Positions 3,126-57,634 of a DNA stretch of 64,000 nt are shown piece by piece. Position 1 is the first letter of the stretch. Every line of letters begins with the position of its first letter. Both the position numbers and the translations under genes were made by a program. The DNA comes from Candidatus Babeliales bacterium (GTDB taxonomy: Bacteria; Babelota; Babeliae; Babelales; JACPOV01), in contig JAGVLQ010000013.1 of the NCBI GenBank assembly GCA_020054235.1, positions 3,571 through 67,570 on the forward strand, written 5' to 3'. A model generated the notes under the pieces. It had not been told where the DNA came from. It searched no databases and was given only the letters and a program-made list of their open reading frames with translations.

Positions 3126-3155
3126 TTGACAAAAAATAATTATGAAGGGTATTGT
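3126..3155 (+). promoter_or_regulatory. possible sigma70-type promoter of the secretin cluster
   Basis: TTGACA at 3126-3131, an 18-nt spacer, then TATTGT at 3150-3155. Sequence match only, in AT-rich DNA. Confidence 0.3.
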
Positions 3156-3185
3156 GTGAAAGTAATGTCAAAAAAAGGAATATTA

Positions 3186-8499: not shown

Positions 8500-9065
8500 A
8501 TGCTCTTAATCAAATAAAAGATTATATTGACCAACTTGATAAAAAATATTTCCAGCGTTATGTAATTATCGCTGGTTCATTGGTACTTATTATTTCTTCT
8601 TTAATTCTTTATCGCTATTATAGAAATATTTTCTTTTATAAAAAAAAGATTGAGACCATAAATCACAAGCGAAAAGAAGTAAAAGATATTCTCGAACGAT
8701 TTGAAATGGTAAAAATTCAACAAACTGAAGTTGATAATCTTTTAGAAAAAGATAAAGACTTTAAAATTGGTGGCTATTTTAATGAAGTTATAACTAAAAT
8801 CGGCATTGCTCAAAATAAAACCCGTGAACCAGAAACATCTTCCGAAGAACTTGATAATGGCTATACCGAAAGAAAATTATATGCAAGTTTTTCGAATATA
8901 ACCATGCAAAAATTAACCGAATTACTTGATACCATCGAACAAAATGAACGTATTTATACTAAAGAAGTTGAAATGTATAAACCTGATACAGGCCGAACAA
9001 TCAATGTTAATTTGCTTATTGCAACGCTTGAGCCTAAAATTGAAACAACAGAATTAGCGGAGTAA
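8496..9065 (+). CDS. PilO/GspM-like inner-membrane assembly protein
   Basis: ATGA overlap at 8496-8499. Short cytoplasmic N-terminus, one TM segment (YVIIAGSLVLIISSLILY), a coiled coil and a small C-terminal domain. The call rests on architecture and position only. Confidence 0.45.
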   Translation: MNALNQIKDYIDQLDKKYFQRYVIIAGSLVLIISSLILYRYYRNIFFYKKKIETINHKRKEVKDILERFEMVKIQQTEVDNLLEKDKDFKIGGYFNEVITKIGIAQNKTREPETSSEELDNGYTERKLYASFSNITMQKLTELLDTIEQNERIYTKEVEMYKPDTGRTINVNLLIATLEPKIETTELAE

Positions 9066-9072
9066 TATAGTT

Positions 9073-11667
9073 ATGAACATGCGTTTATATTTTTTGTATT
9101 TTTTCTTTTTTATTAACACCTGGTTTATTCAAAATATCCGTAGCGAAGGTGAACCGGTCACTACAAAAAAAGTTTCTCAAAAAAGAACAAACAAAAAAAA
9201 GAAAATAATCTTCAGTTTTGCCGATAAACCACTGGTCGAAATAATTAATGAACTTGCAGCAGAAAAAAATGAAAATATTATTTTGCCGCAAGGTGCACAA
9301 GCTATCACCACCAAAGTTACCTATCATTATGCTGAACCTTTAACCATTGATCAAGCCTGGCAACAATTAAGTACTATATTGGCCTTGGCTGGCTATAGTA
9401 TAGAGCCAGAAGCAAGTATTCAAACTATTCGTAAAATAGATCAAAATATCAATCGCCAAATTCTTTCTGTCTACATTAATGAACCGCTGGAAAATATACC
9501 GGATACTGAAAATATTATTCGCGCTGTCTTTTATCTTGCCAATATAAATTTAAAAACAAGCTTCCAAGACCTAAAAAACATACTACAGGACATGCTCTCT
9601 CAAACAGCAAAAGACAACGGCATTCTCTCAGATGCAAAAACAAATGCACTTATTTTAACGGATCAAGCAACAAATATAAAAGCAGCAATGCGCATTATTC
9701 TTGAACTCGATAAAGGAGGTATGCGCGATAGCATTGAAATTATTCCTTTATATTACACAAGTTCTGATCTTGTTGAGCGACTATTCAATGAAAATTTACT
9801 TGCTTCAAAACAGCAACCTGGTGCTGGCGCCGGCACTAATGGAGGATCTCAACCTGAACAACCCTCATATTTTCCTAAAAATACCAAAATTATCGGCTTA
9901 CCTCGCAATAATACCCTCGTAATTATGGGAACACCATTTGCAATTGATTTAGTTAAAGATTTTATCATTAAATATATTGATAGGCCTTTAGAATCTGGCG
10001 AATCAATTCTCCATGTCTATGATTTGCAATATCTTGACGCAAAAGATTTTGCACCAGTGTTGCAACAAATTTTGCTATCAGGTCAAATGCCAGGTCAACA
10101 AGCAACTGGTCAAACAGCAACAGGACCAAAACAATATTTTAAAGATGTTATTGTAGTAAATGAAATACCAAGAAAAACAAAGGAACAGCTTCAACCAACG
10201 ACTGTACAAGGCGAGACGGAACAATTTAAAGGATTAGCTCCCTCTGAAGGAGCACAAGTTGGCGGAAATCGTCTTGTTATTGCCGCACGTAAAAAAGATT
10301 GGGTTCGTATAAAAGAACTTATTGAACAGCTTGATAAACCACAATTACAAGTTGCACTTGAAGTTATTGTTTGTGATGTAACGTTAAATAGTAACAAATT
10401 ACTTGGCAGCCAATTGCGTGATAAAGATGGTTTTAATAAAAGCATCTCAGAACGAGTTAATTTTCAAACTGCTCATTTAAGTCAGCCAATTTTAAAAATG
10501 CCATCTGCAGTAACAGATCAAAGACCAGCAAATGCGTTAATGTCTAATTTACTACAGCTTGGAGATCCTTTTGGAGAAAATGAAAACTTAGCAACTTCAG
10601 CTGAACCAGGTTCTTTAGTATTTTCATTAAAAGATTCTGCTAATGGTGGTGTATGGAGTTTTTGGCAGATTCTTAATAATTACACCAATGCAACGCTCAT
10701 TGCTCAACCATTTGTCATAACGCAAAATCATCAGCAGGCAACTGTTACTATTGCACAGCAACGTTTTCTTGCTGGTAAAGCCGATAGTTCAAATGTTGCG
10801 GTAAAAGTAGGTAATGAATGGGTTACTGCATCATTCACCATTGATATTTTGCCACATATAAGTGCTACCGGAAATATTAATCTACAAATTACCGTAAAAA
10901 TAAACCAGTTTGTTGCTGGTGCTGAGACAGGAAATAATACCCGAGTTACTCGAGCCGTTCAAACAAATGCGAACGTTGGCAATGGAGAAATTTTAGCACT
11001 TGGTGGTCTTACGCGAGAAAGTGAAAATATTCAAGCATCTGAAACACCTCCTTTTAGCAATTTTCCCATAATTGGTTGGTTTTTTAAGAAAAAACAACAA
11101 GTTAAGCAACGTAATAATCTTTTAATTCTCATGTCGCCAACGATTATCCAACCTCGCTTGAAAGGTGGTATCGATACCTTTACGGATAAAAAACTTACTT
11201 TTGCACAAGAACAGCTTGATGAAAGTATGTGTTTTGACAATCTACGTGATCCGGTAAACAGATGGTTCTTTAAACCTAATCCTTTTTATGGAAAAGAGAC
11301 CGTAGAGGAATACACGAAAAAAACAACACAAGAAGATATTTCTCAAAATAATCAGGAACAGAAACAGGCAAATAATCAACAAGTAGTAGAAAATTCATAT
11401 GCTCCAACTGTTTGTGTTTCTCGTGGAGAATTATCCGCACAGGCCTGCGCGATGAAAGAACTCGTTAAAAATGAAAAAAATCCTTTAACGTTGCCTATTG
11501 ATGATAAATCCGAAAAACCAATTTTTAGTGCTAAAAAGCAAGAAAAAACCCAATCTTCGAATGATTCACCAAATACACAACAATTAAAAGATTTGCTTCA
11601 AGCGGCCGATAATCCTCTACTTATTCATCAGCAAGAAGAGAAAGGGCCAATTCATCTTCAATCGTAA
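9073..11667 (+). CDS. GspD/PilQ-family outer-membrane secretin, paralog B, with Q/N-rich C-terminal tail
   Basis: N0-like domain (FSFADKPLVEIINELAAEKNENIIL) and secretin core (VALEVIVCDV...TNANVGNGEILALGGLTR...FPIIGWFFKKK...LLILMSPTII). Clearly paralogous to 4346-6883. Confidence 0.85.
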   Translation: MNMRLYFLYFFFFINTWFIQNIRSEGEPVTTKKVSQKRTNKKKKIIFSFADKPLVEIINELAAEKNENIILPQGAQAITTKVTYHYAEPLTIDQAWQQLSTILALAGYSIEPEASIQTIRKIDQNINRQILSVYINEPLENIPDTENIIRAVFYLANINLKTSFQDLKNILQDMLSQTAKDNGILSDAKTNALILTDQATNIKAAMRIILELDKGGMRDSIEIIPLYYTSSDLVERLFNENLLASKQQPGAGAGTNGGSQPEQPSYFPKNTKIIGLPRNNTLVIMGTPFAIDLVKDFIIKYIDRPLESGESILHVYDLQYLDAKDFAPVLQQILLSGQMPGQQATGQTATGPKQYFKDVIVVNEIPRKTKEQLQPTTVQGETEQFKGLAPSEGAQVGGNRLVIAARKKDWVRIKELIEQLDKPQLQVALEVIVCDVTLNSNKLLGSQLRDKDGFNKSISERVNFQTAHLSQPILKMPSAVTDQRPANALMSNLLQLGDPFGENENLATSAEPGSLVFSLKDSANGGVWSFWQILNNYTNATLIAQPFVITQNHQQATVTIAQQRFLAGKADSSNVAVKVGNEWVTASFTIDILPHISATGNINLQITVKINQFVAGAETGNNTRVTRAVQTNANVGNGEILALGGLTRESENIQASETPPFSNFPIIGWFFKKKQQVKQRNNLLILMSPTIIQPRLKGGIDTFTDKKLTFAQEQLDESMCFDNLRDPVNRWFFKPNPFYGKETVEEYTKKTTQEDISQNNQEQKQANNQQVVENSYAPTVCVSRGELSAQACAMKELVKNEKNPLTLPIDDKSEKPIFSAKKQEKTQSSNDSPNTQQLKDLLQAADNPLLIHQQEEKGPIHLQS

Positions 11668-19346: not shown

Positions 19347-20243
19347 ATGACCAAAAAAGAACCACTTCTTTTGGGTGCACATATGTCAATTGCTGGTGGA
19401 CTTGAAAAATCGATTGAACGCGCTGTTTCAATAAATTGTACAACACTGCAAATTTTTACCAAAAGCAATAGACAATGGAAGGCAAAACCAATAAGTGAGG
19501 AAGAAATAACTGCTTTCAAAACAGCGGTTAAAAATAATCCTTTCATAAAATCGATAGCAGTTCATGCCAGCTATCTAATTAATATTGGGTCTTCAGATAA
19601 AGAGCTCAATAAAAAATCTTTAGAGTCTCTTGATATTGAATTTAAACGATGCCAAGCACTCTCCATCCCATATTTAATTTTACACCCAGGCTCCTGTGGA
19701 ACATCAACCCCAAAACATAGTATGGATTCTATAGCAAATAATATAAATACGATACTCTCTAACAACCCTGGCAAAAGTATGATTCTTCTTGAAAATATGG
19801 GCGGCCAAGGAAGTAGTATCGGCTCAACATTTGAAGAACTTGCTGAAATTTACAAAAAAATAGACGAAAAAAACCGTGTTGGGTTTTGCTTCGATACCTG
19901 CCATGCCTTTGTAGCTGGCTATGATTTCAGAGATAAAAAAAGCTATGATTTTTTATGGAAAAAATTCGAAGAAATACTAGGACTAAAAAAACTTAAAGCC
20001 TTTCACATAAATGATTCTAAAAAAGAACTAGGGTCTAAAATTGACCGCCATGAAGATATAGGCAAGGGGAAAATAGGGCTAGAAGCTTTTCGCTTACTTT
20101 TTAATGATGAAAGATTTTTTGATATTCCTAAAATTCTTGAAACACCAAAAGAGGACGATCTTAAAGACGATGTTAAAAATATGCAAACTATAATAAAACT
20201 TATTAACGAACCTACAAAGAAAAAACTTACTATTTTAAGTTAA
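19347..20243 (+). CDS. nfo: deoxyribonuclease IV (endonuclease IV)
   Basis: LGAHMSIAGGL, HASYLINI, LENMGGQG, CFDTCHAF and the DRHEDIGKGKIG motifs of the Nfo TIM-barrel family. Confidence 0.9.
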   Translation: MTKKEPLLLGAHMSIAGGLEKSIERAVSINCTTLQIFTKSNRQWKAKPISEEEITAFKTAVKNNPFIKSIAVHASYLINIGSSDKELNKKSLESLDIEFKRCQALSIPYLILHPGSCGTSTPKHSMDSIANNINTILSNNPGKSMILLENMGGQGSSIGSTFEELAEIYKKIDEKNRVGFCFDTCHAFVAGYDFRDKKSYDFLWKKFEEILGLKKLKAFHINDSKKELGSKIDRHEDIGKGKIGLEAFRLLFNDERFFDIPKILETPKEDDLKDDVKNMQTIIKLINEPTKKKLTILS

Positions 20244-20245
20244 AA

Positions 20246-20319
20246 TAGTAATAGCTCAGCTCCTCATACCGCTAAGAAGGAATTGTGGTAACACAATTCG
20301 AGGCTCTGAGCTATTACTA
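20246..20319. other. 74-nt imperfect hairpin directly after nfo; possible bidirectional terminator or small structured RNA
   Basis: Outer stem 20246-20259 pairs with 20306-20319 (14 bp). CCTC 20262-20265 pairs with GAGG 20300-20303. Inner perfect 8-bp stem GAATTGTG/CACAATTC (20280-20287 with 20292-20299) is closed by a GTAA loop. There is no flanking T-run. Confidence 0.35.
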
Positions 20320-20557
20320 AATATAGCAGTGCGTCTAACCATACTACCTTAGAATCAGCCTGCCACAGGAAATTTCAAAAAAAATGTCAAATGACACCCT
20401 TAATTTTCCTAATAAAGCATATTTTCTGCAATCAACTTTTATATCAAAAAAAAGCAACAACAAAAAAATTCTGTAAATTAAGGAATTTCCGACCATATTA
20501 GATGATTTTAAACAAAAGCAACAAAAAAACAACAACTCTAAAAATGGTGAATATTTT

Positions 20558-21574
20558 TTAAAAACTCCTTCTTCTCGCATTATTCCAAATAGTAATAAGC
20601 CAGAAGAATACTAGCGTTAAAAAAAGAAAGGATAAAAGCGCAAAACTTATCTTATTGAGGGCAAACAAAAGGGAAAGAACCAAAAATAACCCTGAAATTA
20701 CAAAAACAAATGTCAAAATTTCATACTTAGACCAACCACCTTGTTGCAAATATATTGAAAAGTGATCAGGACTTCCATTATAAAAGGGAATTTTTTTATA
20801 AGTTCTTATTAAAATTAAGGTGGTAATTTCCAAGATAGGTATAGCCAATACTATGATTGGTATTATAAATCCCAAAGGGGTATAGCTACTCCAGTTAAAT
20901 AAAAAAGGTACTGTTCCTAAAAAACCCCCAATAAATAAAGATCCTGCATCACCTAAATAAATACTTGCTGGCGGCCGATTGTACCATAAAAAAGCTAGTA
21001 AGGCTCCTAAAAAAATTGCCAAAAGAAGGGCTAATTGATATTGGCCAAAAAGAAATGCCAGAAGCATAAACGTGAATGTTGCACATGTTGCAAGTGTTGT
21101 TGCAAGCCCATCCATAACATCAACCAGATTAAAGGCATTTATAATAGTTAATATCCATAAAAATGAAAGTGGTATTGACCAAAAATTATCTAAAAAGAAT
21201 GCTTCCTTAAGATACAGCCCTGCTTTTAAAAAACAAAGGGCAGTTATAGTTTGCCAAAAAAATTTTTGGTAGGGTTTTATCTGCAACAGATCATCAATAA
21301 GACCTATAAAAAGAAGTAATGTCGAACCAATTAAAAGGAATGTAATTTTGTTGTCAAACGGAAAAACAAGCGCTAACGTTGTTAAAAAACCGAAATACAC
21401 AGCAACTCCACCTAAGTAAGGAACCGGCTTTTCATGTAATTTAACTTTGCCATCAGGTTTATCTAAAACACCAAGCTTATAAGCAATTTTGGAGAAAAGC
21501 GGAACCAAGTAAAGTGTCAAAAAAAAAGAAATAAAAAAAGAAAGTGTAAGCTTCAATATAAAAACAAATGCCAT
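20558..21574 (-). CDS. MraY/WecA-family polyprenyl-phosphate N-acetylhexosamine-1-phosphate transferase (GT4 family)
   Basis: Polytopic membrane protein with LIGLIDDL, NAFNLVDVMDGLA and YLGDAGSLFIGG motifs. At 338 aa its size fits WecA/TagO-like enzymes rather than MraY. Confidence 0.75.
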   Translation of the reverse strand: MAFVFILKLTLSFFISFFLTLYLVPLFSKIAYKLGVLDKPDGKVKLHEKPVPYLGGVAVYFGFLTTLALVFPFDNKITFLLIGSTLLLFIGLIDDLLQIKPYQKFFWQTITALCFLKAGLYLKEAFFLDNFWSIPLSFLWILTIINAFNLVDVMDGLATTLATCATFTFMLLAFLFGQYQLALLLAIFLGALLAFLWYNRPPASIYLGDAGSLFIGGFLGTVPFLFNWSSYTPLGFIIPIIVLAIPILEITTLILIRTYKKIPFYNGSPDHFSIYLQQGGWSKYEILTFVFVISGLFLVLSLLFALNKISFALLSFLFLTLVFFWLITIWNNARRRSF

Positions 21575-21706
21575 AAATCTCCCTTTTTCTAAAGAAGGAT
21601 GCTTATATTTCGCTATTGAGCATAGCAGGAAGATGATGAAAATCTAGAATGAATTTTTAAAAAAAGTAAAAATTAGTAAATAAATAAATCAATTTAAGGT
21701 GCAAAA

Positions 21707-23722
21707 TCACCGTTGACTTTTATTTTCCTCAGGCTTTTCAATATAACATTCAGCACGATCATCGATTTGCCAATCATCAACGCCTTCAACTAAAAATGCA
21801 AATTCAAAACCAGCATGAATCTCTTTAACAGATTTGCGATCTCTTTCAAGGCTCTTTATTAAACCTTCACCTATCTTTTCTTTGCCACGCCAAGCAACAA
21901 TACGACCAGTGCGTGAAAAAATTCCTTCCTTACAATAAGCGCCCGCAATAACACCTACATTTTTTATATGGAAAACTTTTCTGATAACTGCTTCACCTAT
22001 TTTTTTTGCAATCATTTTGACTGGTTCTTCTTTTTTGAGAAGAGCTTCTAAATGCTCTAATAATTTATAAATAATATCAAAGAGCATAATACGTACAATA
22101 TTTTGTTGCGCAGAAATTGTTGCATTAGGCTGAGTTTTTATATGCAGTCCTAGAATAATTGATCCAGTATTGGCAGCAAGAACAACATCACTTTCATTAA
22201 TATCGCCAATACCAGCATGAACAATAAAACTTTTTATAGGGGATTTATCCGAAATTTTCTTTATCGCTTCAAGCAAAGCCTCTTTTGAAGAAGAAGTATC
22301 CGTTTTTATTATTACATTAATTGAATCTTCGCCCGTTCTTTTTTTAGACTCAAGATCAGCTTGAATTGCTCCTGCAGACTTCAACTTTTTATATTTTTCC
22401 TGAGAAATCACCTCGAACTGATCACCAGCATGAGGCAATTCTGAAAAACCCGAAACTTGCACAGGAATCGACGGCCCAACTTCATTAATCCGAACGCCAT
22501 AAGAATTTATCAAGCTACTTACCTTCCCCAAGGCATACCCTGCGCAAAAATGATCACCTATGCGTAAAGTTCCTTGTTGGCAAACAACCGTTGCAACAGG
22601 ACCAAGTCCTTTTTGCAATTTTGATTCTAAAATAAATCCTGAAGCTGGCTGATTAACATTTGTGCGCAAATCCATAAGTTGCGCTTGCAATGCAACAAGC
22701 TCTAATAATTTATCAACTCCAGTACCAAGTTTTGCCGAAATTGGCACAACTATTGTTTCTCCGCCCCATTCTTCTGGCAATAAATCATAACGAGCAAGAT
22801 CATTCCTGATTACTTCCAGCCTACTTGCTTCAACCTTGTCGATTTTATTAACAGCAACAACAATAGGTATACCTGCTTTTTTTGCTTTAGTTATGGCCTC
22901 AATAGTCTGAGGCATTATACTATCATCAGCAGCGACAACAAGAATAGCCAAATCTGCTACATTGACCCCTCTACCTCGAATATTTGAAAATGCTTCATGC
23001 CCAGGAGTGTCAAGAAAGACAAGACGTCCGTGCGCAGTTTCAACTTGATACGCACCCAAATGCTGCGTAATACCACCTTTTTCTTTTTGCGCAACACGAG
23101 TCTTACGAATAAAATCTAACAAAGTAGTTTTACCATGATCAACATGCCCCAAAACAACAACAACGGGCAACCGAATGTCAACGCCTGCCTGTGGAGCTGT
23201 AATGCGTCTCTCTTCTTTTTTTAGTTTAACCGGATAACTATATGAAAAATTATATACCTTAGCCAACATCTCTACAGTTTTTTCAGGCAAAAGTTGATTC
23301 TTTGGACTTACTATTCCCTGCCGAAGAAGCGTCATTATAACTTCGCTTACGGGCTTCTCTGCCTTTTGGGCAAAATCAGCAACAGTCATTGGCTCTATCA
23401 AAAATTTTTGAGGGATTTCTACTTGCAAATCATGATCTATTTCTGTTTTTTTTTCAACAAGAGAATTTGTCTTTTTATTAAGAGCAGGGGAAGCTTTTTT
23501 TTCTTGGAAATCTAAAGCTGGCTTTTCAGATGTCTCTTCAATATCAGATTGAGAGATTCTTTTTGCCGAATCCTTTTTGGAAAAAAACTCTTGAGCAATT
23601 TTTATGGCTTCCTCTGAAAGAGCAGACATATGACTTTTTACATCAAAACCTTTTTTGGCCAAAAAGTCGATAAGCTCTTTATTCGAAATATTTAATAATT
23701 TGGCGATTTCATATATGCGCAT
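21707..23722 (-). CDS. infB: translation initiation factor IF-2
   Basis: G domain VVVVLGHVDHGKTTLLD, DTPGHEAF and NKID, plus a conserved C-terminal domain. Located downstream of nusA. Confidence 0.95.
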   Translation of the reverse strand: MRIYEIAKLLNISNKELIDFLAKKGFDVKSHMSALSEEAIKIAQEFFSKKDSAKRISQSDIEETSEKPALDFQEKKASPALNKKTNSLVEKKTEIDHDLQVEIPQKFLIEPMTVADFAQKAEKPVSEVIMTLLRQGIVSPKNQLLPEKTVEMLAKVYNFSYSYPVKLKKEERRITAPQAGVDIRLPVVVVLGHVDHGKTTLLDFIRKTRVAQKEKGGITQHLGAYQVETAHGRLVFLDTPGHEAFSNIRGRGVNVADLAILVVAADDSIMPQTIEAITKAKKAGIPIVVAVNKIDKVEASRLEVIRNDLARYDLLPEEWGGETIVVPISAKLGTGVDKLLELVALQAQLMDLRTNVNQPASGFILESKLQKGLGPVATVVCQQGTLRIGDHFCAGYALGKVSSLINSYGVRINEVGPSIPVQVSGFSELPHAGDQFEVISQEKYKKLKSAGAIQADLESKKRTGEDSINVIIKTDTSSSKEALLEAIKKISDKSPIKSFIVHAGIGDINESDVVLAANTGSIILGLHIKTQPNATISAQQNIVRIMLFDIIYKLLEHLEALLKKEEPVKMIAKKIGEAVIRKVFHIKNVGVIAGAYCKEGIFSRTGRIVAWRGKEKIGEGLIKSLERDRKSVKEIHAGFEFAFLVEGVDDWQIDDRAECYIEKPEENKSQR

Positions 23723-23775
23723 TTATTCCATTTACTAAAAAAAGCGATTTTAATTGTATTTTTACCACTGAATAG

Positions 23776-24855
23776 CTACTCTTCAACTTCAGCATCAAAA
23801 GCCTCGGCCTCTGACTCAAAAAGCTGTGGCTCTTTGCTAGTTTTTTCCTGTTGCATCAAGTTTATGCTTAAACCTGTTAATTGAGAAGCTAAAAAAATAT
23901 TTTGGCCCATTCGACCAATAGCAAGAGAGCGCTGGTCTTCATCAAGCCAAACATTTGCCGAGCCATGTCCAACCAGCTCTACCCGACCTATTACAGCAGG
24001 CTTGAGGGCATTTGCTATAAGCTCCTCTTTTGACTCGGTCCAAGGAATTACATCTATTTTTTCACCACCAAGCTCTTTAAGAATAGGCTTAATACGAACA
24101 CCTCCGACGCCAACACATGTGCCAACAGGGTCAATGTTTTTTTCATTGGAAATTACAGCAACCTTTGTCTTGTAGCCAGGCGCCCGAACAATCTTTTTTA
24201 TTTCAACAAGCTTTTCAAAGACCTCTGGGATCTCAAGCTCAAATAACTTTTGAACAAAATCCGCAGATGCTCTATCCAAAATAAGCTGATTATCATTACG
24301 AGGTTCGGTCAAAACATCTTTGAGGAGGGCTCTAATTGAAAAGCCAACAACGCATTTATCAGACAAAATAGAAAGAGACTTTGGAAGAAAAGCCAAAGTG
24401 TCACCTACTTTTACGGTCATACCATTGCGCTCACATTTGTGGATAACACCATGAATAATGGTTCCCTTTTTCCCTATGTATTCATCATAAATTGCCGCCG
24501 CCTCAATATTGCGAATCTTTTGGGCTATTACTTGCTTGGCGCGCAAAATCTCAATCCTGCCTATAGGGCGATCAAATTCAGCCAAAACAACATCGCCAAT
24601 TTGAGCCTCAGGATCGATTCCTTTTGCTTTTCTAAGGGATATTTCGGCATCCTCATCATCAACTGTGCTTACAATTCTTTTTTTGACTGCAATCTCAAGC
24701 TCATCAGTCTTCTTATTGTGAGAAATAGAAAACTCCAGGCCTGGGTATTTTTTAGCGTAAGCCGCCATCATGCCTTCACAAATAATTTCACTTAAAAGAT
24801 CTCGATCAAGCCCGCGCTCCTCAACGAGCTCATCAATGACAAGGGAAAGTTTCAC
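23776..24855 (-). CDS. nusA: transcription termination/antitermination factor NusA
   Basis: S1 and KH regions (GDVVLAEFD...; PGYKTKVAVIS...DPVGTCVGVGGVRIKPI). GTG start at 24855. Forms the nusA-infB operon. Confidence 0.9.
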   Translation of the reverse strand: MKLSLVIDELVEERGLDRDLLSEIICEGMMAAYAKKYPGLEFSISHNKKTDELEIAVKKRIVSTVDDEDAEISLRKAKGIDPEAQIGDVVLAEFDRPIGRIEILRAKQVIAQKIRNIEAAAIYDEYIGKKGTIIHGVIHKCERNGMTVKVGDTLAFLPKSLSILSDKCVVGFSIRALLKDVLTEPRNDNQLILDRASADFVQKLFELEIPEVFEKLVEIKKIVRAPGYKTKVAVISNEKNIDPVGTCVGVGGVRIKPILKELGGEKIDVIPWTESKEELIANALKPAVIGRVELVGHGSANVWLDEDQRSLAIGRMGQNIFLASQLTGLSINLMQQEKTSKEPQLFESEAEAFDAEVEE

Positions 24856-25028
24856 GGTAGATTGCCTTTACTCAATGATTCAATAAATAATCCCTAATTC
24901 TAGCAAAAAAATAAAAAAAGGGAAGAAAACGTTTTCTCATGTGTTTTTGTGGAAGCAGAACCAGGGTCGTTTAGTTATTATTAAATTATTATATTACTTA
25001 AGTATTTTTAAAAATAATAATAATAAGC

Positions 25029-25299
25029 TGTGGTGAAATTGTGGATAACTTTGATTTTAAAAGTCTAAAAACATCTCCCCGTGGCACTATTGGCCAACTC
25101 TTTGTTTGTGGATAACCTGTGAATGAGATGTGGATAATCATGTGGATAATTTATTTTGTCCCTTAGAAATAGGGATCAAAATAGCTATTCTGAATTTATT
25201 GCTTTATAGCTACAAACTGGAGCAGTCTTTCTGCACCCCTTTAGAGTTATCCACAAGTTATTCACATTTCATTCACAGGTTATCCACATTTCATTCACA
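25029..25299. promoter_or_regulatory. DnaA-box cluster (candidate oriC or DnaA-binding regulatory locus)
   Basis: Perfect TGTGGATAA at 25040-25048, 25107-25115, 25129-25137 and 25141-25149. Perfect TTATCCACA at 25247-25255 and 25280-25288. Boxes with 1-2 mismatches at 25029-25037, 25118-25126, 25258-25266, 25269-25277 and 25291-25299. A nearly pure A/T tract lies at about 24975-25027. Confidence 0.75.
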
Positions 25300-25314
25300 C
25301 TTTCTATTTGAAAT

Positions 25315-25893
25315 TTAACTCTTATTCAATGAGTCAAGTGCGGTTTTGATATCTTGGACAAAGGTGGGGAGTTCTCGTGGATTGCGAAGGATGTATGCTG
25401 GATGGTATGTAGGTATTAGGGTTATGTTTTGCCATTGCAGAGGGTTTCCGCGCAATTTTGTTATTTTTGCTGTTTGGTCAAGCAGTGATTGCAAAGCGCT
25501 ACTGCCCAAGGTGCAGAGGATTTTCGGTCGAATAATTTTTATTTGTTTTAGCAAAAGTAAGTTTTTGCAGGTATTGCTTTCGATCGGTGTTGGAGGGCGG
25601 TTGTTTGGCGGACGACATTTGACAACATTGGTAATAAAAACTGTTTCACGTGTAATGCCAAGATGCTGAAGTGTTCTGGTTAGCAATTGTCCCGATCTTC
25701 CAACAAATGGCCTACCTTGTTGATCTTCTTTGGCTCCTGGGCCTTCGCCGATGAAAATTATTTGAGCATCGGGATTTCCTTCTCCAAACACAACCTGTGT
25801 TCTTCCTTGTGTACCTAGAGGGCACAGGGTACAATTTTTATAGGGAGCATACAATTGTTCAAGTAGTTGTTGCTTAAATTGTTTTGAATCCAT
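25315..25893 (-). CDS. uracil-DNA glycosylase, family 4
   Basis: CTLCPL, GEGPGAKEDQQGRPFVGRSGQLL and HPAYILRNP motifs. Confidence 0.85.
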   Translation of the reverse strand: MDSKQFKQQLLEQLYAPYKNCTLCPLGTQGRTQVVFGEGNPDAQIIFIGEGPGAKEDQQGRPFVGRSGQLLTRTLQHLGITRETVFITNVVKCRPPNNRPPTPIESNTCKNLLLLKQIKIIRPKILCTLGSSALQSLLDQTAKITKLRGNPLQWQNITLIPTYHPAYILRNPRELPTFVQDIKTALDSLNKS

Positions 25894-25954
25894 TGATCAA
25901 AATTTTTCTTTATTGCAAGGTTATGATTATTGTTAGTATAAATGAATTATGCTT

Positions 25955-27424
25955 TTATGCAGCCAAATAATTTCTTATCAGCGTAAACCATTTATTAGAT
26001 TGAGCAAATTTTGTTTTTTGATAAGACTGATGAATTCTTCTTTCTGGAAAATAAATTGAAATGCCTTGTGTTTTGATAAGATTCTTTCCTGCAACATTTT
26101 CAATAACAATATTTTTTACTATGTCCATACTGATCCTTAATGCTTCTTGCAGTTCTTTAAGAATTTTATTACCAATTTCAATATGAGTGAATTCCATTTT
26201 TTTTGAATTGGCCAGAAGATTTGTGCATAGGTGATGCCAATCTAAGTAGCTTGGTTCATCAAAATGTGTGCAATAAAGTTTATGACGACTCAATTTTATT
26301 GCTTCTCTGACCGAGTTATTTTTTTGAATTTTTATTGCTTCAATTAATAATTCAGCAATACGATCTATGGTTATTTCAAGATCCAAAAAGCCCGACAAGT
26401 CTATTGCAGATTGTGTATAATCATTGGTAATTGTGCTGTAGGCATTTTCATATGATTTGACAATATGTTTAGCAAAGGCTTTAGGTTCCATTGACTCATT
26501 TAAAAATGGTAACAAAATTTTATAGTAATTATAACCGGTGCCTAATTCTACTTCTACTGAAGCTGTCATATAATGAGCATGATTTTTTACGATATTTGCT
26601 ATTTCTATCATTGACATTAAGCAAGCGTCAAAACAAATAATGCTAAATTTTTTACCGCCTAAATAATTCTTGCATATAGTACTTAGGGCAAAATCAAGAT
26701 CTTGATTGTTAAGAGCATGGCCTGTTGAATCATCAAAACAAATTGATCGATGCTCGGGACAGCAGGTAGCTTGAACAAAATCAATAAACGAGATGCTTCT
26801 ATCAAGTTCAAGTAAGTTGCTTTCAGGATTAAACATAAACAGTGGTAATGGATTTATACTGCGATGTCGCACAACATCAAGAGCTCCAGTTCCATGATTC
26901 CAAAGTATAAGAACATAATTTTTTGCAGGATAATTAGTAATAGCCCACTTACAGCAATCGATTAATGTTGCAGGTAAACCACTGTCCATTTTTTGGCTGT
27001 TCGGATCGTTTTGGTTGGTTACGATTAATTTATTTTTTTCAATATAATAACGTTTAGTTACTTTTTTGTTGCCAGCAACACGTGTATCTAGCTGCGTAAC
27101 TATATTTATATATTTGCTGGAGCCAACATCCGACTGTTCTTTTAAATTTTTTCGTGCAAATGGTGCAAGATCATTATCTGCTGCCATATAGGTAATAAAA
27201 GTCCAATCTTTTAATTCAAGTTTTGCCTTAATGGCATGAGCGTTGCTAGGATCAGTGCAAAGATTCTCCTGAGAGTTAGTTAAATATGTATCGGCAAAAC
27301 TTTGCTCTTCGTTTTCCAAGATGGGTAGGGCATGAATACCTTGCTCTAAGCAAAAAGTACTGGAGATAATTAAAAGAAAAATAATTAATAAATTTTTATG
27401 AGGGTTAAATTTATTAAATTTCAT
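25955..27424 (-). CDS. secreted clostripain-like cysteine peptidase (C11 family)
   Basis: Signal peptide, YMAADNDL, LILWNHGTG (catalytic His region) and ICFDACLMS (catalytic Cys region). Confidence 0.65.
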   Translation of the reverse strand: MKFNKFNPHKNLLIIFLLIISSTFCLEQGIHALPILENEEQSFADTYLTNSQENLCTDPSNAHAIKAKLELKDWTFITYMAADNDLAPFARKNLKEQSDVGSSKYINIVTQLDTRVAGNKKVTKRYYIEKNKLIVTNQNDPNSQKMDSGLPATLIDCCKWAITNYPAKNYVLILWNHGTGALDVVRHRSINPLPLFMFNPESNLLELDRSISFIDFVQATCCPEHRSICFDDSTGHALNNQDLDFALSTICKNYLGGKKFSIICFDACLMSMIEIANIVKNHAHYMTASVEVELGTGYNYYKILLPFLNESMEPKAFAKHIVKSYENAYSTITNDYTQSAIDLSGFLDLEITIDRIAELLIEAIKIQKNNSVREAIKLSRHKLYCTHFDEPSYLDWHHLCTNLLANSKKMEFTHIEIGNKILKELQEALRISMDIVKNIVIENVAGKNLIKTQGISIYFPERRIHQSYQKTKFAQSNKWFTLIRNYLAA

Positions 27425-27494
27425 TTTAAGCTCCTCTTTTTTTATTTTTCTTTTTCTTAGTTAGATTTAGTCTATGGAAAAGAAATTATCGTGA

Positions 27495-28619
27495 TCAAGA
27501 GTTTTTAAGTAAAAAGGAGTTTTTGTTGAATGTGCTATGATTTATCCATGTTAGTAAAAAAGTGATGCCAAAGCTGAGTTGAAAATCAAGAAAAAAAAGA
27601 TAGAAAGGATTAATTATAAGGCTGCAAAATGTAATGACCGTTATAGCATGAATTGGATGAATTTGTTTTTCTAAAAATAATCCTCCCTTATACAAAAAAA
27701 AAGTAGCTAATGAGCGAATAAATGATATGCTTGACCAACTAAATAATACGTAAACAAGAGTTAATAGGCACAAAATAGATTGTTTCAAGAGGTAAGTAAC
27801 AGGCAATAATTTCAGTAACATTTCCCATAAAAAAATAAAAATTATTAAATGCAAGCCTGATCGTGCAAGATAATGAGAAATCCCCCAAAATTTAAAATTT
27901 TCTTTAAGAGAGCAGAGATTTTTTTTATCAATTTCTTTATTGCCAAAAAAAAGAAGTGCTAAAAAATTATACGTTTTTTTTGATAATTTTTTTTTGAGTA
28001 CGTTTATAATTTGCAAACGGTATTCAAAAAATAGGCGGCTAAGGCTTTTTGTTGGTCTTTCTATAAGTATACCTTTTGAAGAGGTTATCGTGCCCGCAAT
28101 TTGCTCCTTTAAAAAATATTGTTTGATAGAGTCTTGCTTGGGTATAGAAATAAAACAATTTTCTAGTTTTATGGTATCTCCGATGCGAAATTGGTGATTT
28201 TGGGAGCAATACCATAAGATATTCTGAGAGCCATGAAAAGTTAAATTATTTTGCGCTTCTATGATTTTATCTATAGATCCTGTAATACGATATTTTAGAA
28301 AGCGATGATTTGATTGGGCTATATCTGTAATTGTTATAATGGTATCAATTTTTTTATTTAAAATAATACGATGGAATTGAAGAGCGCGATTTATATTTTT
28401 TTGATAAAGTGCAGAACCAATGATTAATGAACTGCCAAATAAAGCAATAGTAAGATTTTTTTTTAGATAACTTATGAAGATGCTTAGCCCAAAAAAACTA
28501 AAAGGCCAGTAAAAGGAATAATTAAGCGATTGAAAAAAAATTCCAATCATTAAGAATAAGGTTGCAGGCAATAAGGGATGGATGGTAAAAAAAATAAAAT
28601 AGCGACTTAGTGAAAGCAT
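27495..28619 (-). CDS. short ComEC/Rec2-like membrane protein (no metallo-beta-lactamase domain)
   Basis: Polytopic. FWGISHYLARSGLHLIIF matches the ComEC competence-domain ISHLLAISGLH motif. Only about 375 aa. I prefer ATG 28619 over TTG 28628. Confidence 0.55.
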   Translation of the reverse strand: MLSLSRYFIFFTIHPLLPATLFLMIGIFFQSLNYSFYWPFSFFGLSIFISYLKKNLTIALFGSSLIIGSALYQKNINRALQFHRIILNKKIDTIITITDIAQSNHRFLKYRITGSIDKIIEAQNNLTFHGSQNILWYCSQNHQFRIGDTIKLENCFISIPKQDSIKQYFLKEQIAGTITSSKGILIERPTKSLSRLFFEYRLQIINVLKKKLSKKTYNFLALLFFGNKEIDKKNLCSLKENFKFWGISHYLARSGLHLIIFIFLWEMLLKLLPVTYLLKQSILCLLTLVYVLFSWSSISFIRSLATFFLYKGGLFLEKQIHPIHAITVITFCSLIINPFYLFFLDFQLSFGITFLLTWINHSTFNKNSFLLKNS

Positions 28620-28793
28620 AAAAACCAACTTAAAAATTTTTATAAATTTCCATTAGTCTATCATATAATTGGGTGTTTGCCATAAATAAAAATCGTTTAA
28701 AGTCGCGTTTTTTGCTAATTTTTATTAATATACTCAACATTATTACTTATAATCATCAAAAAGCTTTGTTTTATTTTGAGAAGGGTGCGCTTA

Positions 28794-39070: not shown

Positions 39071-40543
39071 TTGAAAAGAATTTTACGTTTTTCAATATTA
39101 CTTTTACTATCACTATTGGTCTCCTATAATCATAATGCTGTTCAAAACTGTTTATCTATCGAAAATCGTTCTATTTCTGATTTGCATGTAGGATTAGGCA
39201 AAGAATTGTTAACTGCAGCAAAAGAAAATACACCCCAGAAATTTCGTTCGTTACTAAAGCAAGTAGTGCAGCAGTACAGAGGTGATAAAGAAGGCTTTCT
39301 TAAAGTGCTTAATACAAGAGATGAAGATGATTTTAATATTATGCAATTTGGGTCACTTATTAGTGATATTGAGAATGTTTCAGCAATATTTGATGCCCTA
39401 GAAGAATTTTATGGTAATGATACTTATGGGCTTTTTGAATACCTTTCTCAGCGTACCAAACAAGGCTTAACGATTTTGGGTCTTGCTGAATATAGTGCCA
39501 ATAGAAGATTGATTGAACTCATAATGATGCGGATAATGAAGTTATCGGCTGAAAATAAAGAACTTTTTTTAAAATTTATGAATCTTGGTACTTATCAAGA
39601 AAACGAAAGACCTTTGGGTGATGCTTCATTTGATAGTGAATTTGAAAATATAAAAATTATGGTAAAAGTTGCTGCGCATGTTTTGGGCAGAGACTCAAAA
39701 GAATTTGATGAATTTTTAAATGCTCAAGAAAAATCAGGCAATAACGCATTATCCTATGCAAAAGATAATCAAATTAAATTTTTTTTGATGCATTATGGTG
39801 CAAAAATGCCTATAGGGCCAATTGATCCATTAATAACAAAAGCAAATCAAGAAGGCTTAGCATTGAATCATGCAATAAATCATGATCAATTTAAAAAATT
39901 TAATAAAATTTTAAATCTAGCTTCTCAATTTAAAGATAATGACTATGCCTTATTTACTTTCTTTTCAACGAGAAATAGTGCTGGTTGGAATCCCTTTATT
40001 AATGTTGCTGCAGACAATCAAATTAATTATTTAAAAATATTGCTTGAAAAAATAGATTATCTTTTTAAAGAAGATAAAGAAACAAAATCATTATTATTAA
40101 GTAATGCCGATTTTGAAGGAAGGACACCATTACATTTAGCAATTTTGCGAAGAAATTTTGATATAGCACGGTTGCTTATAGATACGATTGTTCGTTACTC
40201 AGTTAATAAACCTTTTTTATATGCTGTTTTAAGTGTAGCTAATGAATTAAATGGTTTTACGCCTTTTACAAATACTATTTATGCAAGTGAAGATTTTGAT
40301 GAAGAAATTTATGAATTTACTAAATTTTTTATTACTCGCGCGGAACAATTATTCGGTAGAAATTCTCGGATGTTTTATTTATTTATGAATACGAGAGATT
40401 ATAATGGTTGGAATCCGCTGGCATATGCTGTTGATACTCCGATGATCAAGTTACTTAAATCCTATGGTGCGGTAGATACTGTTATGCCTTATTATAAAGG
40501 AATTGGTGAATTTAAAAAATTAGAATTTGAAGGCGAATTATAA
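39071..40543 (+). CDS. exported ankyrin-repeat protein (divergent repeats)
   Basis: TTG start with AAGGAAAG upstream. Signal-like N-terminus. ANK-type units (EGRTPLHLAILRRNFDIARLLI; NGWNPLAYAVDTPMIKLLKSYGA; AGWNPFINVAADNQINYLKILL). Confidence 0.55.
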   Translation: MKRILRFSILLLLSLLVSYNHNAVQNCLSIENRSISDLHVGLGKELLTAAKENTPQKFRSLLKQVVQQYRGDKEGFLKVLNTRDEDDFNIMQFGSLISDIENVSAIFDALEEFYGNDTYGLFEYLSQRTKQGLTILGLAEYSANRRLIELIMMRIMKLSAENKELFLKFMNLGTYQENERPLGDASFDSEFENIKIMVKVAAHVLGRDSKEFDEFLNAQEKSGNNALSYAKDNQIKFFLMHYGAKMPIGPIDPLITKANQEGLALNHAINHDQFKKFNKILNLASQFKDNDYALFTFFSTRNSAGWNPFINVAADNQINYLKILLEKIDYLFKEDKETKSLLLSNADFEGRTPLHLAILRRNFDIARLLIDTIVRYSVNKPFLYAVLSVANELNGFTPFTNTIYASEDFDEEIYEFTKFFITRAEQLFGRNSRMFYLFMNTRDYNGWNPLAYAVDTPMIKLLKSYGAVDTVMPYYKGIGEFKKLEFEGEL

Positions 40544-40550
40544 TTTAATT

Positions 40551-43214
40551 ATGAAAGCATATAAAGAACTTATTGAAACTGTTTTACAAAATCTATCTAC
40601 TGACTCTGCCAAAGGCCTTTCTTTTGACCAAGTGATTCAACTTCAAAAACGATTTGGTAAGAATATTTTGCCAAAGATTCAGCGCGATTCGCTCTTGAAA
40701 ATTTTTTTTCGTCAATTTCAAAATCCTCTGATTTATATTTTATTGGTCGCAGCAACAATAATTTTTTTTGTAGGTGACCCTCTTGATGCATTCGTGATTA
40801 GTGGGGTATTGTTTTTTAATGCTGTTATTGGAACTATTCAAGAAGGCAGAACAGAGCGAATGCTTGAAAGTTTAAGAAAATACTTAAAATTTCAAGTAAT
40901 TGTCTTGCGCGATGGGAAAAAGAAGATTGTACAATCATCTGAATTAGTCCCTGGAGATATTGTTATTTTGCAAGAGGGAGAAAAAGTTCCTGCTGATGCT
41001 CGTTTGCTAGAAGCACACCATCTTTTAGTAGATGAGTCAATGTTAACGGGAGAATCAAGGGGAATAGCAAAAGAAATAAAACCAATAACACAAGAAGTTT
41101 CAATTGCTGATCAAAAAAATATGATTTTTAAGGGCACTTATATTCTTAATGGTTTTGCAAAAGCAGTTGTTGTTGCTACAGCAGACAAAACTGAAATAGG
41201 GAGAATAGGCCACGCGATTGAAGAAATTGAAACAGAAATGCCTCTCAAGCGCGAAATTGATCATTTATCAGGGTATATTTTATATTTTATTTTGCTCGTA
41301 TGTTTATTTTTATTGTTGATAGGCGTTTGGCAAGGAAGAACATTTGTTGACATGTTGGTTATTCTTACTGCCCTTTTTATTTGTGTTATTCCTGAAGGAT
41401 TGCCCGTAATTATGACATTAACACTTGTTACTGGTGCCTATCGCATGTCAAAAGAAAATGTTTTGGTAAAACGATTACAAGCAGCGGAAGGTCTAGGACG
41501 TACCGATGTTATAATAATTGACAAAACTGGAACATTGACACGCAATGAAATGATTGTTTCAAAGTTATATGCCGATGATAAATTATATGAGATTTCAGGA
41601 CAAGGATACAAGCCTGAAGGGAATATTTATTATGAACAAAAACCATTAAAAGAATATAGTTCAACAATGCATTTAATGGGATTAGGTTGCTCATTAATGA
41701 ATAAAACAGAAATTGAGTTTGTTCCTGATCTAAAATTATACAATATAAAAGGAGATCCAACGGAAGCGGCATTATTTGTTTTTTCCCAAAAAATTGATAT
41801 AAGTAGCCAAGAAGCTTTATTTGAATATAAACCTCTTTATGAACAACCTTTCGAATCTGTGTTGCGATATCAAGCAGGAATTTATCAAAAAGGAGATGAT
41901 ATTTTTTGTTTTATTGCCGGAGCACCAGAGACGATTATCAATAAGTGTCATAATGCTAAATATCAAACTCAACAAACTTTACAAGAATTAGTTCAAGAGG
42001 GTTTTAGAGTTATTGGTATGGCAGAAAAAAAAATTGATATTCTAAAACTTGCCCCCAATTGGCAGGAGGATTCTAATTTTTTGAAACAGCTATTTGAAGA
42101 TAATTTTAACTTTTTGGGTTTATTCGCTATTGAAGATACTATTCGGCCTGAAGTTAAACGAATTGTAGCACAAGCAAAGTCAGCTGGACTTAATGTTGTT
42201 ATGGCAACGGGAGATCATAGAGATACTGCATTATTTGTTGCGCGTAAAGTAGGTATTTTTCATGATGGAGACAGGGTTATTGAAGGTAAAGAAATTGATT
42301 TGTTGTCTGATGATGAATTATCTTCAAAATTAGATTTAATCAAAGTTTTTGCGCGTGTTTCACCTGAAAATAAATTACGTATTGTTCAATTATTTCGCAA
42401 AAAAGGAAATATTGTTGCTATGACAGGTGATGGTGTCAATGATGCTCCTTCGTTAGTTGCAGCTGATCTTGGTATTGCTATGGGAGCTATTGGAACAGAA
42501 GTTGCAAAACGAGCAGCCGATATGATTTTATTAGATGACTCATTTATGAGTGTTGTGCATGCCATTGAACAAGGTCGGCATATTTTTGCTACGTTGCGGC
42601 GTGTTATTACTTACTTTTTTACCACCAATATGGCAGAAATTTTTATTATTCTTTTTGCGTTGGTTGCCAATATGCCATTGCCTTTATTGGCAGTTCAAAT
42701 TCTTTGGTTGAATCTGATTACTGATGGTTTCCTTGATGTAGCGCTTTCTCTTGAGCCATGCCATGAGAAAGCATTAGCAATAAGCATTCATGTGAAAAAA
42801 ATTACACGGCTTGTTGATTGGAAGGTTTTTCTCAATATGGTTTATCTTTCTATACCGATGGCTTTAGGTTCTTTGTTTATTTTTAATAGGTATTATGAAC
42901 AGAATATTTCTCTTGCAAGAACGATGGCGCTTGTTACTATGGCAATGTATCAGTGGTTTAATGCATGGAACTGCCGTTCAGAAAAGTTTTCAATTTTTAA
43001 GATCGGAATCTTGAGTAATTATTGGCTTTTAATAGCTACCTTTTTTGTTTTAGGGTTGCAAATGATACTATTATACACAATTCCAGGGCAGTATATTTTT
43101 AAGACAGTACCTTTAACCTTTAATCAATGGTGTTTAATATTGTTGCTAACGGCCCCTTTATTTATATTTGAAGAGTTGCGAAAAGTGCTTGTAAACTATC
43201 TTTTTAAAGATTAA
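40551..43214 (+). CDS. P2-type cation-transporting P-type ATPase (Ca2+-ATPase-like)
   Basis: TGES, DKTGTLT, PEGLPVI, MATGDH and TGDGVNDAPSL motifs with ten predicted TM segments. I prefer ATG 40551 over TTG 40527. Confidence 0.85.
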   Translation: MKAYKELIETVLQNLSTDSAKGLSFDQVIQLQKRFGKNILPKIQRDSLLKIFFRQFQNPLIYILLVAATIIFFVGDPLDAFVISGVLFFNAVIGTIQEGRTERMLESLRKYLKFQVIVLRDGKKKIVQSSELVPGDIVILQEGEKVPADARLLEAHHLLVDESMLTGESRGIAKEIKPITQEVSIADQKNMIFKGTYILNGFAKAVVVATADKTEIGRIGHAIEEIETEMPLKREIDHLSGYILYFILLVCLFLLLIGVWQGRTFVDMLVILTALFICVIPEGLPVIMTLTLVTGAYRMSKENVLVKRLQAAEGLGRTDVIIIDKTGTLTRNEMIVSKLYADDKLYEISGQGYKPEGNIYYEQKPLKEYSSTMHLMGLGCSLMNKTEIEFVPDLKLYNIKGDPTEAALFVFSQKIDISSQEALFEYKPLYEQPFESVLRYQAGIYQKGDDIFCFIAGAPETIINKCHNAKYQTQQTLQELVQEGFRVIGMAEKKIDILKLAPNWQEDSNFLKQLFEDNFNFLGLFAIEDTIRPEVKRIVAQAKSAGLNVVMATGDHRDTALFVARKVGIFHDGDRVIEGKEIDLLSDDELSSKLDLIKVFARVSPENKLRIVQLFRKKGNIVAMTGDGVNDAPSLVAADLGIAMGAIGTEVAKRAADMILLDDSFMSVVHAIEQGRHIFATLRRVITYFFTTNMAEIFIILFALVANMPLPLLAVQILWLNLITDGFLDVALSLEPCHEKALAISIHVKKITRLVDWKVFLNMVYLSIPMALGSLFIFNRYYEQNISLARTMALVTMAMYQWFNAWNCRSEKFSIFKIGILSNYWLLIATFFVLGLQMILLYTIPGQYIFKTVPLTFNQWCLILLLTAPLFIFEELRKVLVNYLFKD

Positions 43215-48696: not shown

Positions 48697-49197
48697 TGCT
48701 AGAATCGATGATTTTAGTTTTTTATAAATTTCATTAAGGTCGATTGATATTTGTTTTGTATTAGCAAGTAATGGCAAAAAGTTTGTGTCCCCAATCCAGC
48801 GTGGAAGTACGTGTTGATGAAAATGGCTTGGTATTCCTGCGCCACTTGCTTTGCCAATATTAAAACCAACATTAACTCCTTGTGCTTTTAGAACATCAGT
48901 TAAAATATTTATGCAACTGTTGGTTAATTCTATTAATTCAATGCGTGCTTCTTTTGATAATTCTTCTAAATTTTTTTTATGATCTAATGAAATAATCAGC
49001 AAATGCCCGGCATTATAGGGATATAAATTAAGCATTATTGCATGATGAGTAAATCGTTTAAAAATAAAATGTTTTTCATCATTGTTATCAGCAAGATTTG
49101 CGCAAAATATACAGTCTTCTTTTTCTATTTTATCATTTTTACCATGGACAACGTCTGTTACATAGTTACTTCGCCATGGCGCATAAAGATGTTTCAT
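48691..49197 (-). CDS. HIT-family nucleotide hydrolase/phosphorylase (Ap4A-phosphorylase-like branch)
   Basis: Histidine triad HFHQHVLPRW followed by GDTNF. ATG 49197 overlaps the upstream stop (ATGA). Confidence 0.7.
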   Translation of the reverse strand: MKHLYAPWRSNYVTDVVHGKNDKIEKEDCIFCANLADNNDEKHFIFKRFTHHAIMLNLYPYNAGHLLIISLDHKKNLEELSKEARIELIELTNSCINILTDVLKAQGVNVGFNIGKASGAGIPSHFHQHVLPRWIGDTNFLPLLANTKQISIDLNEIYKKLKSSILAL

Positions 49198-52025: not shown

Positions 52026-52042
52026 GGGCAAAGGAAAAACGC

Positions 52043-56892: not shown

Positions 56893-56907
56893 GGAGGTGA
56901 TCTGCTT

Positions 56908-57615: not shown

Positions 57616-57634
57616 AATTAAAAATGAGAGTAGT

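Follow-up and report, generated by a model that had tools for sequence, protein, structure and literature searches.

A predicted chromosomal replication origin upstream of nusA in Dependentiae/Babeliales bacteria

Chromosomal origins of replication (oriC) that lie apart from dnaA are familiar in bacteria, e.g., between gidA and mioC in Escherichia coli, at hemE in Caulobacter and in others. For the phylum Dependentiae, a prediction based on GC skew and TTATCCACA boxes put the origin of the cultured Chromulinavorax destructans at 651641-652233 of 1,174,272 bp (Deeg 2019, PMC6561590), and the origin of Babela massiliensis was placed by GC skew 152 nt upstream of dnaA (Pagnier 2015, PMC4378268). 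A minimum of the cumulative skew is an origin signature, the leading strand being G-rich (Lobry 1996, Grigoriev 1998, summarised in PMC7111523), and Ori-Finder asks for at least three DnaA boxes with at most one mismatch. The basal unwinding system (BUS) is defined as a DnaA box with at most two mismatches, a spacer of 0-16 bp, most commonly 13 bp, and at least three NAN trios with the consensus 3'-GAT-5' (Pelliciari 2021, PMC8287927); the spacer may contain a weaker second box and a short GC step (PMC8287927). Here we analysed 64,000 nucleotides of contig JAGVLQ010000013.1 from a Candidatus Babeliales bacterium (assembly GCA_020054235.1), referred to as the window, in which a cluster of DnaA boxes occupies the intergenic spacer between nusA and the uracil-DNA glycosylase gene udg. 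Judged from its sequence, this cluster is very probably the chromosomal oriC of the Dependentiae/Babeliales bacterium, of the standard DnaA-dependent type and positioned upstream of nusA rather than beside dnaA.

By the limits of the flanking open reading frames (ORFs) the spacer, predicted to be oriC as a whole, covers 24856-25314 and has the length of 459 bp stated in an earlier note on this DNA. It contains 11 boxes and the skew minimum of the window, and relatives carry boxes in the same spacer. An exact search located perfect TGTGGATAA boxes at 25040, 25107, 25129 and 25141 and perfect TTATCCACA boxes at 25247 and 25280, in agreement with the six positions of the earlier note; all six fall within 250 bp. 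The window as a whole held eight perfect boxes, against a mean of 0.70 in dinucleotide-preserving shuffles, and none of 100 shuffles reached eight, which bears out the claim that the clustering is not chance. With up to two mismatches allowed, 11 boxes were present in the spacer (six perfect, one with one mismatch, four with two), while about 1.9 are expected per stretch of this length at the background density of the window. The degenerate boxes are located at 25029, 25118, 25258, 25269 and 25291, five instead of the six previously claimed. Compared to the minimum of Ori-Finder, six perfect boxes and one box with a single mismatch were found in 459 bp.

Tandem boxes are organised in two arrays. 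Array A (25107-25149, reverse strand) consists of four boxes at 25107, 25118 (two mismatches), 25129 and 25141 with periods of 11, 11 and 12 bp, oriented toward the predicted DNA unwinding element (DUE). Array B (25247-25299, forward strand) consists of five boxes at 25247, 25258 (one mismatch), 25269 (two mismatches), 25280 and 25291 (two mismatches) with a period of 11 bp and has the opposite orientation. The strong boxes alternate with recurring weaker variants, TCATTCACA (three times) and TTATTCACA, at helical-repeat spacing, as would be predicted if a DnaA oligomer filled them cooperatively. On the nusA strand, the udg stop is followed by the five reverse boxes (25247-25299), a gap of 97 bp, the four forward boxes (25107-25149), a gap of 58 bp, the box-spacer-trio module, the A/T tract, about 120 bp and the nusA start. 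The polarity is therefore DUE, then TGTGGATAA-oriented boxes, then TTATCCACA-oriented boxes. Whether the two groups face each other, as had been described, depends on the convention; drawn as 5'-TTATCCACA-3' arrows they point apart like R1 and R4 of E. coli.

Several other sequence elements were inspected. Outside the spacer, perfect TTATCCACA boxes were present at 24438-24446 (reverse strand), within the coding sequence of nusA at 410 bp from its start, and at 49364-49372 (forward strand), overlapping the ORF 49194-50714; these could be chance occurrences or DnaA-regulated sites. The earlier note had pointed out a perfect 14-bp palindrome, AGAAAACGTTTTCT, which does exist at 24924-24937. It was rejected as a feature and given no weight, because the window contains nine perfect palindromes of this length and the palindrome is absent from the eight relatives compared (L001-L008). 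An ORF of 62 amino acids (25130-25318) is composed of box repeats and was disregarded. Searches of the spacer retrieved no RNA family from Rfam, no terminator and no CtrA-type TTAA-N7-TTAA motif; GATC occurred once, hence without enrichment of the Dam/SeqA type.

The predicted DUE is an AT-rich tract at 24975-25027, in which 50 of 53 positions are A or T, in line with the nearly pure A/T tract noted earlier. Throughout the 64 kb, 50-mers with at least 48 A/T start only at 24975-24977. DnaA-trio repeats occupy 25009-25026 (forward strand) and read, 3'->5' from 25026, AAT AAT AAT AAT AAA AAT; the four trios nearest to the box (25015-25026) fit the consensus 3'-[G/A]AT-5'. Runs of four or more [C/T]TA occurred twice on both strands of the window, one of them at 25015-25026. 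The adjacent pair of BUS boxes (25029-25048, reverse strand) comprises the degenerate TTCACCACA at 25029-25037 (two mismatches) and the perfect TTATCCACA at 25040-25048, both pointing toward the trios. Between the perfect box and the first trio lies a spacer of 13 bp (25027-25039) that holds the degenerate box and the GC step. On the nusA strand the module thus reads 5'-TTATCCACA at TTCACCACA gc TTA TTA TTA TTA TTT TTA-3', followed by the A/T tract. All parts of the BUS rule are represented: the perfect box at 25040-25048, the 13-bp spacer and six NAN trios, five of them AAT. The second, weaker tandem box, for which up to four mismatches are allowed, is present as TTCACCACA at 25029-25037 with two.

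The skew analysis proposed in the earlier note was run on the window and on related loci. In the window the cumulative (G-C) minimum was at 24900, inside the spacer; GC skew was negative over roughly the first 24,000 positions, and beyond about 25,000 it was positive up to the last one. The V formed by the cumulative curve was 1975 deep; when blocks of 500 bp were permuted 5000 times, the depth never exceeded 1085. Left of the locus the skew at third codon positions, counted in forward-strand letters, was -0.165 for genes on the forward strand and -0.233 for genes on the reverse strand; to the right it was +0.231 and +0.202, respectively. The skew switch is not a coding-strand effect, because the sign follows the side of the replichore on both gene strands. 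The two genes flanking the spacer, nusA and udg, are encoded on the same strand and have opposite skew.

Both flanking genes are on the reverse strand. The gene nusA (23776-24855; TIGR01953, NusA, E = 3.5e-97) is the first gene of the left replichore and is transcribed away from the origin, co-directional with the leftward fork. Downstream of it follows infB, coding for IF-2 (21707-23722, reverse strand; TIGR00487, E = 7e-164). The right-hand flank of the predicted origin is formed by the family-4 uracil-DNA glycosylase gene udg (25315-25893; TIGR00758, E = 2.6e-57), whose transcription runs toward the origin. The gene order over 19347-28628 is ComEC-like protein, C11 (clostripain-family) peptidase, family-4 UDG, oriC, nusA, infB, WecA/MraY-like glycosyltransferase and nfo.

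The region upstream of nusA was compared among related genomes, as the earlier note had proposed. A NusA-based scan with one genome per species gave eight relatives (L001-L008) with NusA proteins of 62-73 % identity; they are labelled Candidatus Dependentiae, Babeliales or, mislabelled, 'Pseudomonadota', and the protein matches were likewise named Candidatus Babeliales or Dependentiae. Two further relatives, L203 and L205 (1.42-Mb contig), were chosen by NusA homology alone. These ten genome loci, picked by NusA similarity alone, constitute an unbiased sample. In all ten the skew minimum fell close to the start of nusA (9500-10000 in loci whose nusA begins at 10001), and the spacer contained at least seven boxes. 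The layout of the window recurred in L001-L008: three to five reverse boxes, a gap, three to four forward boxes, a gap, a single forward box, trios, A/T-rich DNA and nusA. In these eight loci the block of three to five tandem reverse boxes stands directly after the udg stop. L203 and L205 share the synteny of the window, with ComEC-like protein, C11 peptidase, (UDG), oriC, NusA, IF2, WecA/MraY-like protein and nfo. The gene rimP was not found upstream of nusA in the window, in L203 or in L205. Boxes, trios, AT tract and skew switch were thus recovered at the syntenic site in ten of ten genome loci, and also in dozens of metagenome contigs.

For the metagenome sample, contigs were scanned exactly for three tandem TTATCCACCA boxes, which yielded at least 80 loci, 477 kb in all. 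This set was selected on the arrays and shows where arrays are located, not the share of Dependentiae that possess them; the counts in this paragraph hold among the matches listed. A homologue of NusA, UDG, C11-like peptidase or IF2 stood beside the array in 73 of 80 loci (NusA 57, UDG 52, C11-like peptidase 51, IF2 42). In all 20 loci whose flanks measured at least 2 kb in both directions the skew was negative upstream (mean -0.116) and positive downstream (mean +0.184), and the sign changed despite flanking genes that share one strand. Of 65 loci whose upstream sequence was long enough, 53 contained the box-spacer-trio-AT module with three to four [C/T]TA trios. Spacers in related loci measured 14 bp (42 loci), 13 bp (6), 15 bp (2) or 4 bp (3), and the 14-bp spacer of most relatives was not box-like. 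The 40 nt after the trios averaged 87 % A/T, and the BUS box was located 170-440 bp from the nusA start in 53 loci. The adjacency of oriC and nusA was kept across NusA identities of 43-73 %; the other flank was variable, with udg present or absent.

Some loci deviated from the layout. UDG is absent in some lineages (e.g., L203, L105, L123), and the C11 peptidase there abuts the arrays. Long tandem TTATCCACCA runs at contig ends were present at L117:2501-2752 and L154:3-309 (sample Ga0126342), with five and seven overlapping triple matches. These two contigs have no homologue of NusA, UDG, C11 or IF2 and do not resemble the two-array origin layout. They may represent another type of DnaA-box array or an artefact of assembly.

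The box itself differed between lineages. The window, L001, L203 and L205 have TTATCCACA, while L002-L008 have TTATCCACC, usually followed by A (e.g., L002:9474-9781). Among the matches listed, most of L083-L162 also use TTATCCACC(A) for every origin box. Mixed loci, with TTATCCACCA arrays and a TTATCCACA BUS box, were L094, L122 and L159. In most lineages the boxes have changed as a whole set, ...ACA giving way to ...ACC, which suggests a lineage-wide shift or relaxation of the DnaA specificity at box position 9. A box sequence that shifts as a set is as expected for sites bound by a co-evolving protein.

In agreement with the earlier note, NCBIfam scans detected neither dnaA nor dnaN in the 64-kb window; of the 59 listed ORFs that have at least 100 amino acids they covered 50, among them nearly all non-overlapping ones. 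A tblastn search with DnaA and DnaN of E. coli retrieved nothing from the window, from L001-L008 or from the 80 metagenome loci (477 kb, among the matches listed), and the DnaA Pfam family was not among the genes listed for L203-L206.

On the basis of these elements the following course of initiation is proposed. DnaA would occupy the high-affinity TTATCCACA boxes and would then cooperatively fill the interleaved weaker boxes (TCATTCACA, TTATTCACA) along the two oppositely oriented arrays with their period of 11-12 bp. From the box pair at 25029-25048 the DnaA oligomer would extend onto the trios (3'-AAT-5' four times, forward strand, 25015-25026). Trio binding would open the AT-rich tract at 24975-25027 for loading of the helicase, and forks would leave both ways, the leftward one co-directional with nusA-infB. 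We infer DnaA binding, unwinding and initiation at this site from sequence features.

Clusters of DnaA boxes outside oriC exist, e.g., datA of E. coli, and the earlier note had offered a DnaA titration or regulatory site as the alternative to an origin. The cluster would then be a datA-like titration or inactivating locus, or a purely regulatory DnaA operator of nusA-infB, and the true origin would lie elsewhere, e.g., beside dnaA. Its position directly upstream of nusA-infB with no dnaA nearby would agree with such a role, as would the assignment of the Babela origin next to dnaA (PMC4378268). A titration site, however, would not coincide with a sign change of the GC skew, as the cluster does in the window and as its counterparts do in 30 of the 30 related loci that could be tested (20 of them among the matches listed), and it has no need for the box-trio-AT module of fixed spacing present in 53 of 65 loci (among the matches listed). 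The datA-like class comprises clusters away from the origin without an unwinding module; this cluster sits at the skew minimum with trios and DUE. The distance of the boxes, 175-445 bp upstream of the nusA start, none of them overlapping the candidate promoter, may speak against an operator. Titration or operator function would explain the boxes but would account for neither the skew switch nor the trio/DUE module; therefore an origin is preferred, and both functions are very unlikely as sole roles of the site. Chance clustering, a local inversion breakpoint or a repeat or mobile-element artefact might be suspected in an AT-rich genome (33.7 % GC), in which AT tracts, NAN triplets and short palindromes such as the nine mentioned above are common. 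Against this stand the shuffles, none of 100 reaching eight perfect boxes, and the block permutations, none of 5000 producing as deep a V; dozens of independent assemblies retain both the architecture and the housekeeping genes beside it, and Rfam is empty at the site. The conservation and the permutation tests have already refuted this explanation, which has a negligible probability.

Some observations speak against an origin at this site. Box cluster and skew minimum were judged within 64 kb of the replicon, and a second cluster or a deeper minimum may lie elsewhere. A dnaA or dnaN neighbour, a typical though not obligatory feature of oriC, is missing from the 25 kb on the left and the 39 kb on the right. 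As correctly noted before, there is no flip of gene orientation at this point, and the coding bases co-directional with the inferred forks amount to 45 % on the left and 64 % on the right. The dnaA-adjacent origin of Babela implies that the nusA position is not universal in Dependentiae or that the Babela assignment is approximate. The lack of an orientation flip, which had been held to weaken the case for an origin, carries little weight, because the skew at third codon positions changes sign on both gene strands. An origin uncoupled from dnaA, the first of the two possibilities raised in the earlier note, is strongly supported by skew minimum, module and conservation. With box enrichment, a canonically spaced unwinding module, a replichore boundary and the conservation of all three at one syntenic site, an origin is left with little competition.

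A further possibility complements the origin and does not replace it. The site may also be wired to the expression of nusA-infB, in that DnaA occupancy modulates the nusA promoter or transcription from the DUE helps the opening; transcription-aided opening has been proposed for gidA and mioC at oriC of E. coli. Such a dual role would fit the short and conserved distance from DUE to nusA and the adjacency to nusA, which is steadier than that to udg across NusA identities of 43-73 %. It would also fit a candidate nusA-infB promoter, TTGCTA, 17 nt, TTGAAT (24878-24906, reverse strand), between DUE and nusA start, a low-confidence result of a pattern scan. At DnaA-regulated promoters, such as those of dnaA or nrd, boxes overlap the promoter or flank it directly. 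In the window, about 120 bp separate the candidate -35 element (24906) from the nearest box upstream of it (25029), the promoter itself being a weak pattern match. Similar pairs, TTGCGA-17-TACACT/TACAAT/TAGACT, occurred in L004, L006 and L008, and a loose pattern was matched by 24 of 66 loci, a low share that speaks against the dual role. A consensus promoter scan of the spacer did not call the candidate at 24878-24906 and gave only weak matches, several of them inside boxes or the DUE. Moreover, selection on gene dosage that favours translation genes near origins, or a simple lack of rearrangement, may be all that lies behind the conserved adjacency. Coupling to nusA-infB in addition to the origin function is rather unlikely. 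Broader and more doubtful still is the idea of a stable uncoupling from dnaA throughout a large Dependentiae clade, in which the origin would have become fused to the front of nusA-infB and functionally linked to it, the box shift marking a changed specificity of DnaA domain IV. If true, these obligate intracellular parasites would couple the start of replication to their capacity for transcription and translation.

The literature searched contained no earlier description of a conserved position beside nusA, of the variant TTATCCACC box or of a clean BUS module in this phylum. No Dependentiae entry was found in the accessible part of the supplementary files of the BUS survey (PMC8287927). The analysis gives a precise, testable predicted oriC, with boxes, trios and DUE at base level, for a phylum known almost only from metagenomes. 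The site represents a conserved landmark, C11 peptidase-(udg)-oriC-nusA-infB, at which origin predictors keyed to dnaA, dnaN, gidA or hemE get no indicator-gene credit. This landmark is usable to rotate and quality-check metagenome-assembled genomes of Dependentiae and to place peak-to-trough growth estimates. One more phylum now joins those that point to an ancient and widespread box-trio unwinding module; the picture of how origins work stays unchanged.

Other features of the window were recorded alongside. The gene smpB (31835-32287) is closely followed by a transfer-messenger RNA (tmRNA) gene (32535-32907) with the tag ANQNNGFASAQPAFA; an ORF of 106 amino acids on the opposite strand (32478-32798) overlaps the tmRNA and is probably spurious. 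A cluster of the type II secretion or type IV pilus-like kind (3126-11667) includes secretin paralogues at 4346-6883 and 9073-11667, with a GspC-like and a PilM-like protein between them. A P-type ATPase of 895 amino acids (40527-43214) scored best with calcium pumps of the PMR1/SERCA type (TIGR01522, E = 1.2e-172, below the curated cut-off); it is eukaryote-like and fits an intracellular lifestyle. On the forward strand, a nucleotide-sugar and glycan cluster (50841-60922) contains wecB and genes for a UDP-ManNAc dehydrogenase, a fused dehydrogenase/oxidoreductase, a glycosyltransferase, a mannose-1-phosphate guanylyltransferase, a GDP-mannose dehydratase and a GDP-fucose synthase.

Among described systems, the prediction for C. 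destructans is from the same phylum and has the same basis of skew plus boxes, the same presumptive box TTATCCACA and the same GC content (33.7 %, window 33.7 %). It consists of coordinates only (593 bp); flanking genes, architecture and conservation are not named in the paper (PMC6561590). Babela massiliensis also belongs to this phylum and its origin was also deduced from skew, but it is dnaA-adjacent, unlike the nusA-linked clade with no DnaA or DnaN in the examined flanks. Two explanations offer themselves: a relocation of the origin or of dnaA in the course of the phylum's history, or an assignment in Babela that was made by convention. With datA of E. coli the locus shares several DnaA boxes away from dnaA; datA is not at a skew switch and has no unwinding module, whereas the locus in the window has both.

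Closer is the likeness to oriC of E. coli between gidA (mnmG) and mioC, which is also apart from dnaA, has its DUE at one end and presents R1 (TGTGGATAA), then R4 (TTATCCACA) in the opposite orientation. In the annotated E. coli oriC, R1 is located beside the 13-mers and R4 at the far end, the same polarity as in the window. Weaker sites with a period of about 11 bp are interleaved among strong boxes in both; an array model of weak sites among strong boxes in E. coli oriC was reportedly put forward by Rozgaja in 2011. Unlike oriC of E. coli, the spacer in the window has no 13-mer repeats and no GATC enrichment, and the flanking genes differ. The BUS/trio signature is strong in the window, while the BUS score of E. 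coli has been described as weak (PMC8287927).

The unwinding module has its counterpart in oriC (incC) of Bacillus subtilis, whose BUS with DnaA-boxes 6/7, GC cluster and trios (Richardson 2016/2019; Pelliciari 2021, PMC8287927) has the same order and orientation as in the window. The B. subtilis module is given in the supplementary table, 3'->5', as AATAGGTGT TTAGGTGT CCGG GATGATAAT... (PMC8287927), which corresponds to 5'-TTATCCACA AATCCACA GGCC CTACTATTA-3' on the other strand. In B. subtilis a bipartite origin flanks dnaA, while the predicted origin of the window is a single spacer of 459 bp. The spacer between box and trios measures 12 bp in B. subtilis and 13 bp in the window, and the predicted trios of the window are mostly AAT, compared to GAT in B. 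subtilis. Common to both are a strong box, a weaker box, a short G/C step, 3'-[G/A]AT-5' trios and AT-rich DNA.

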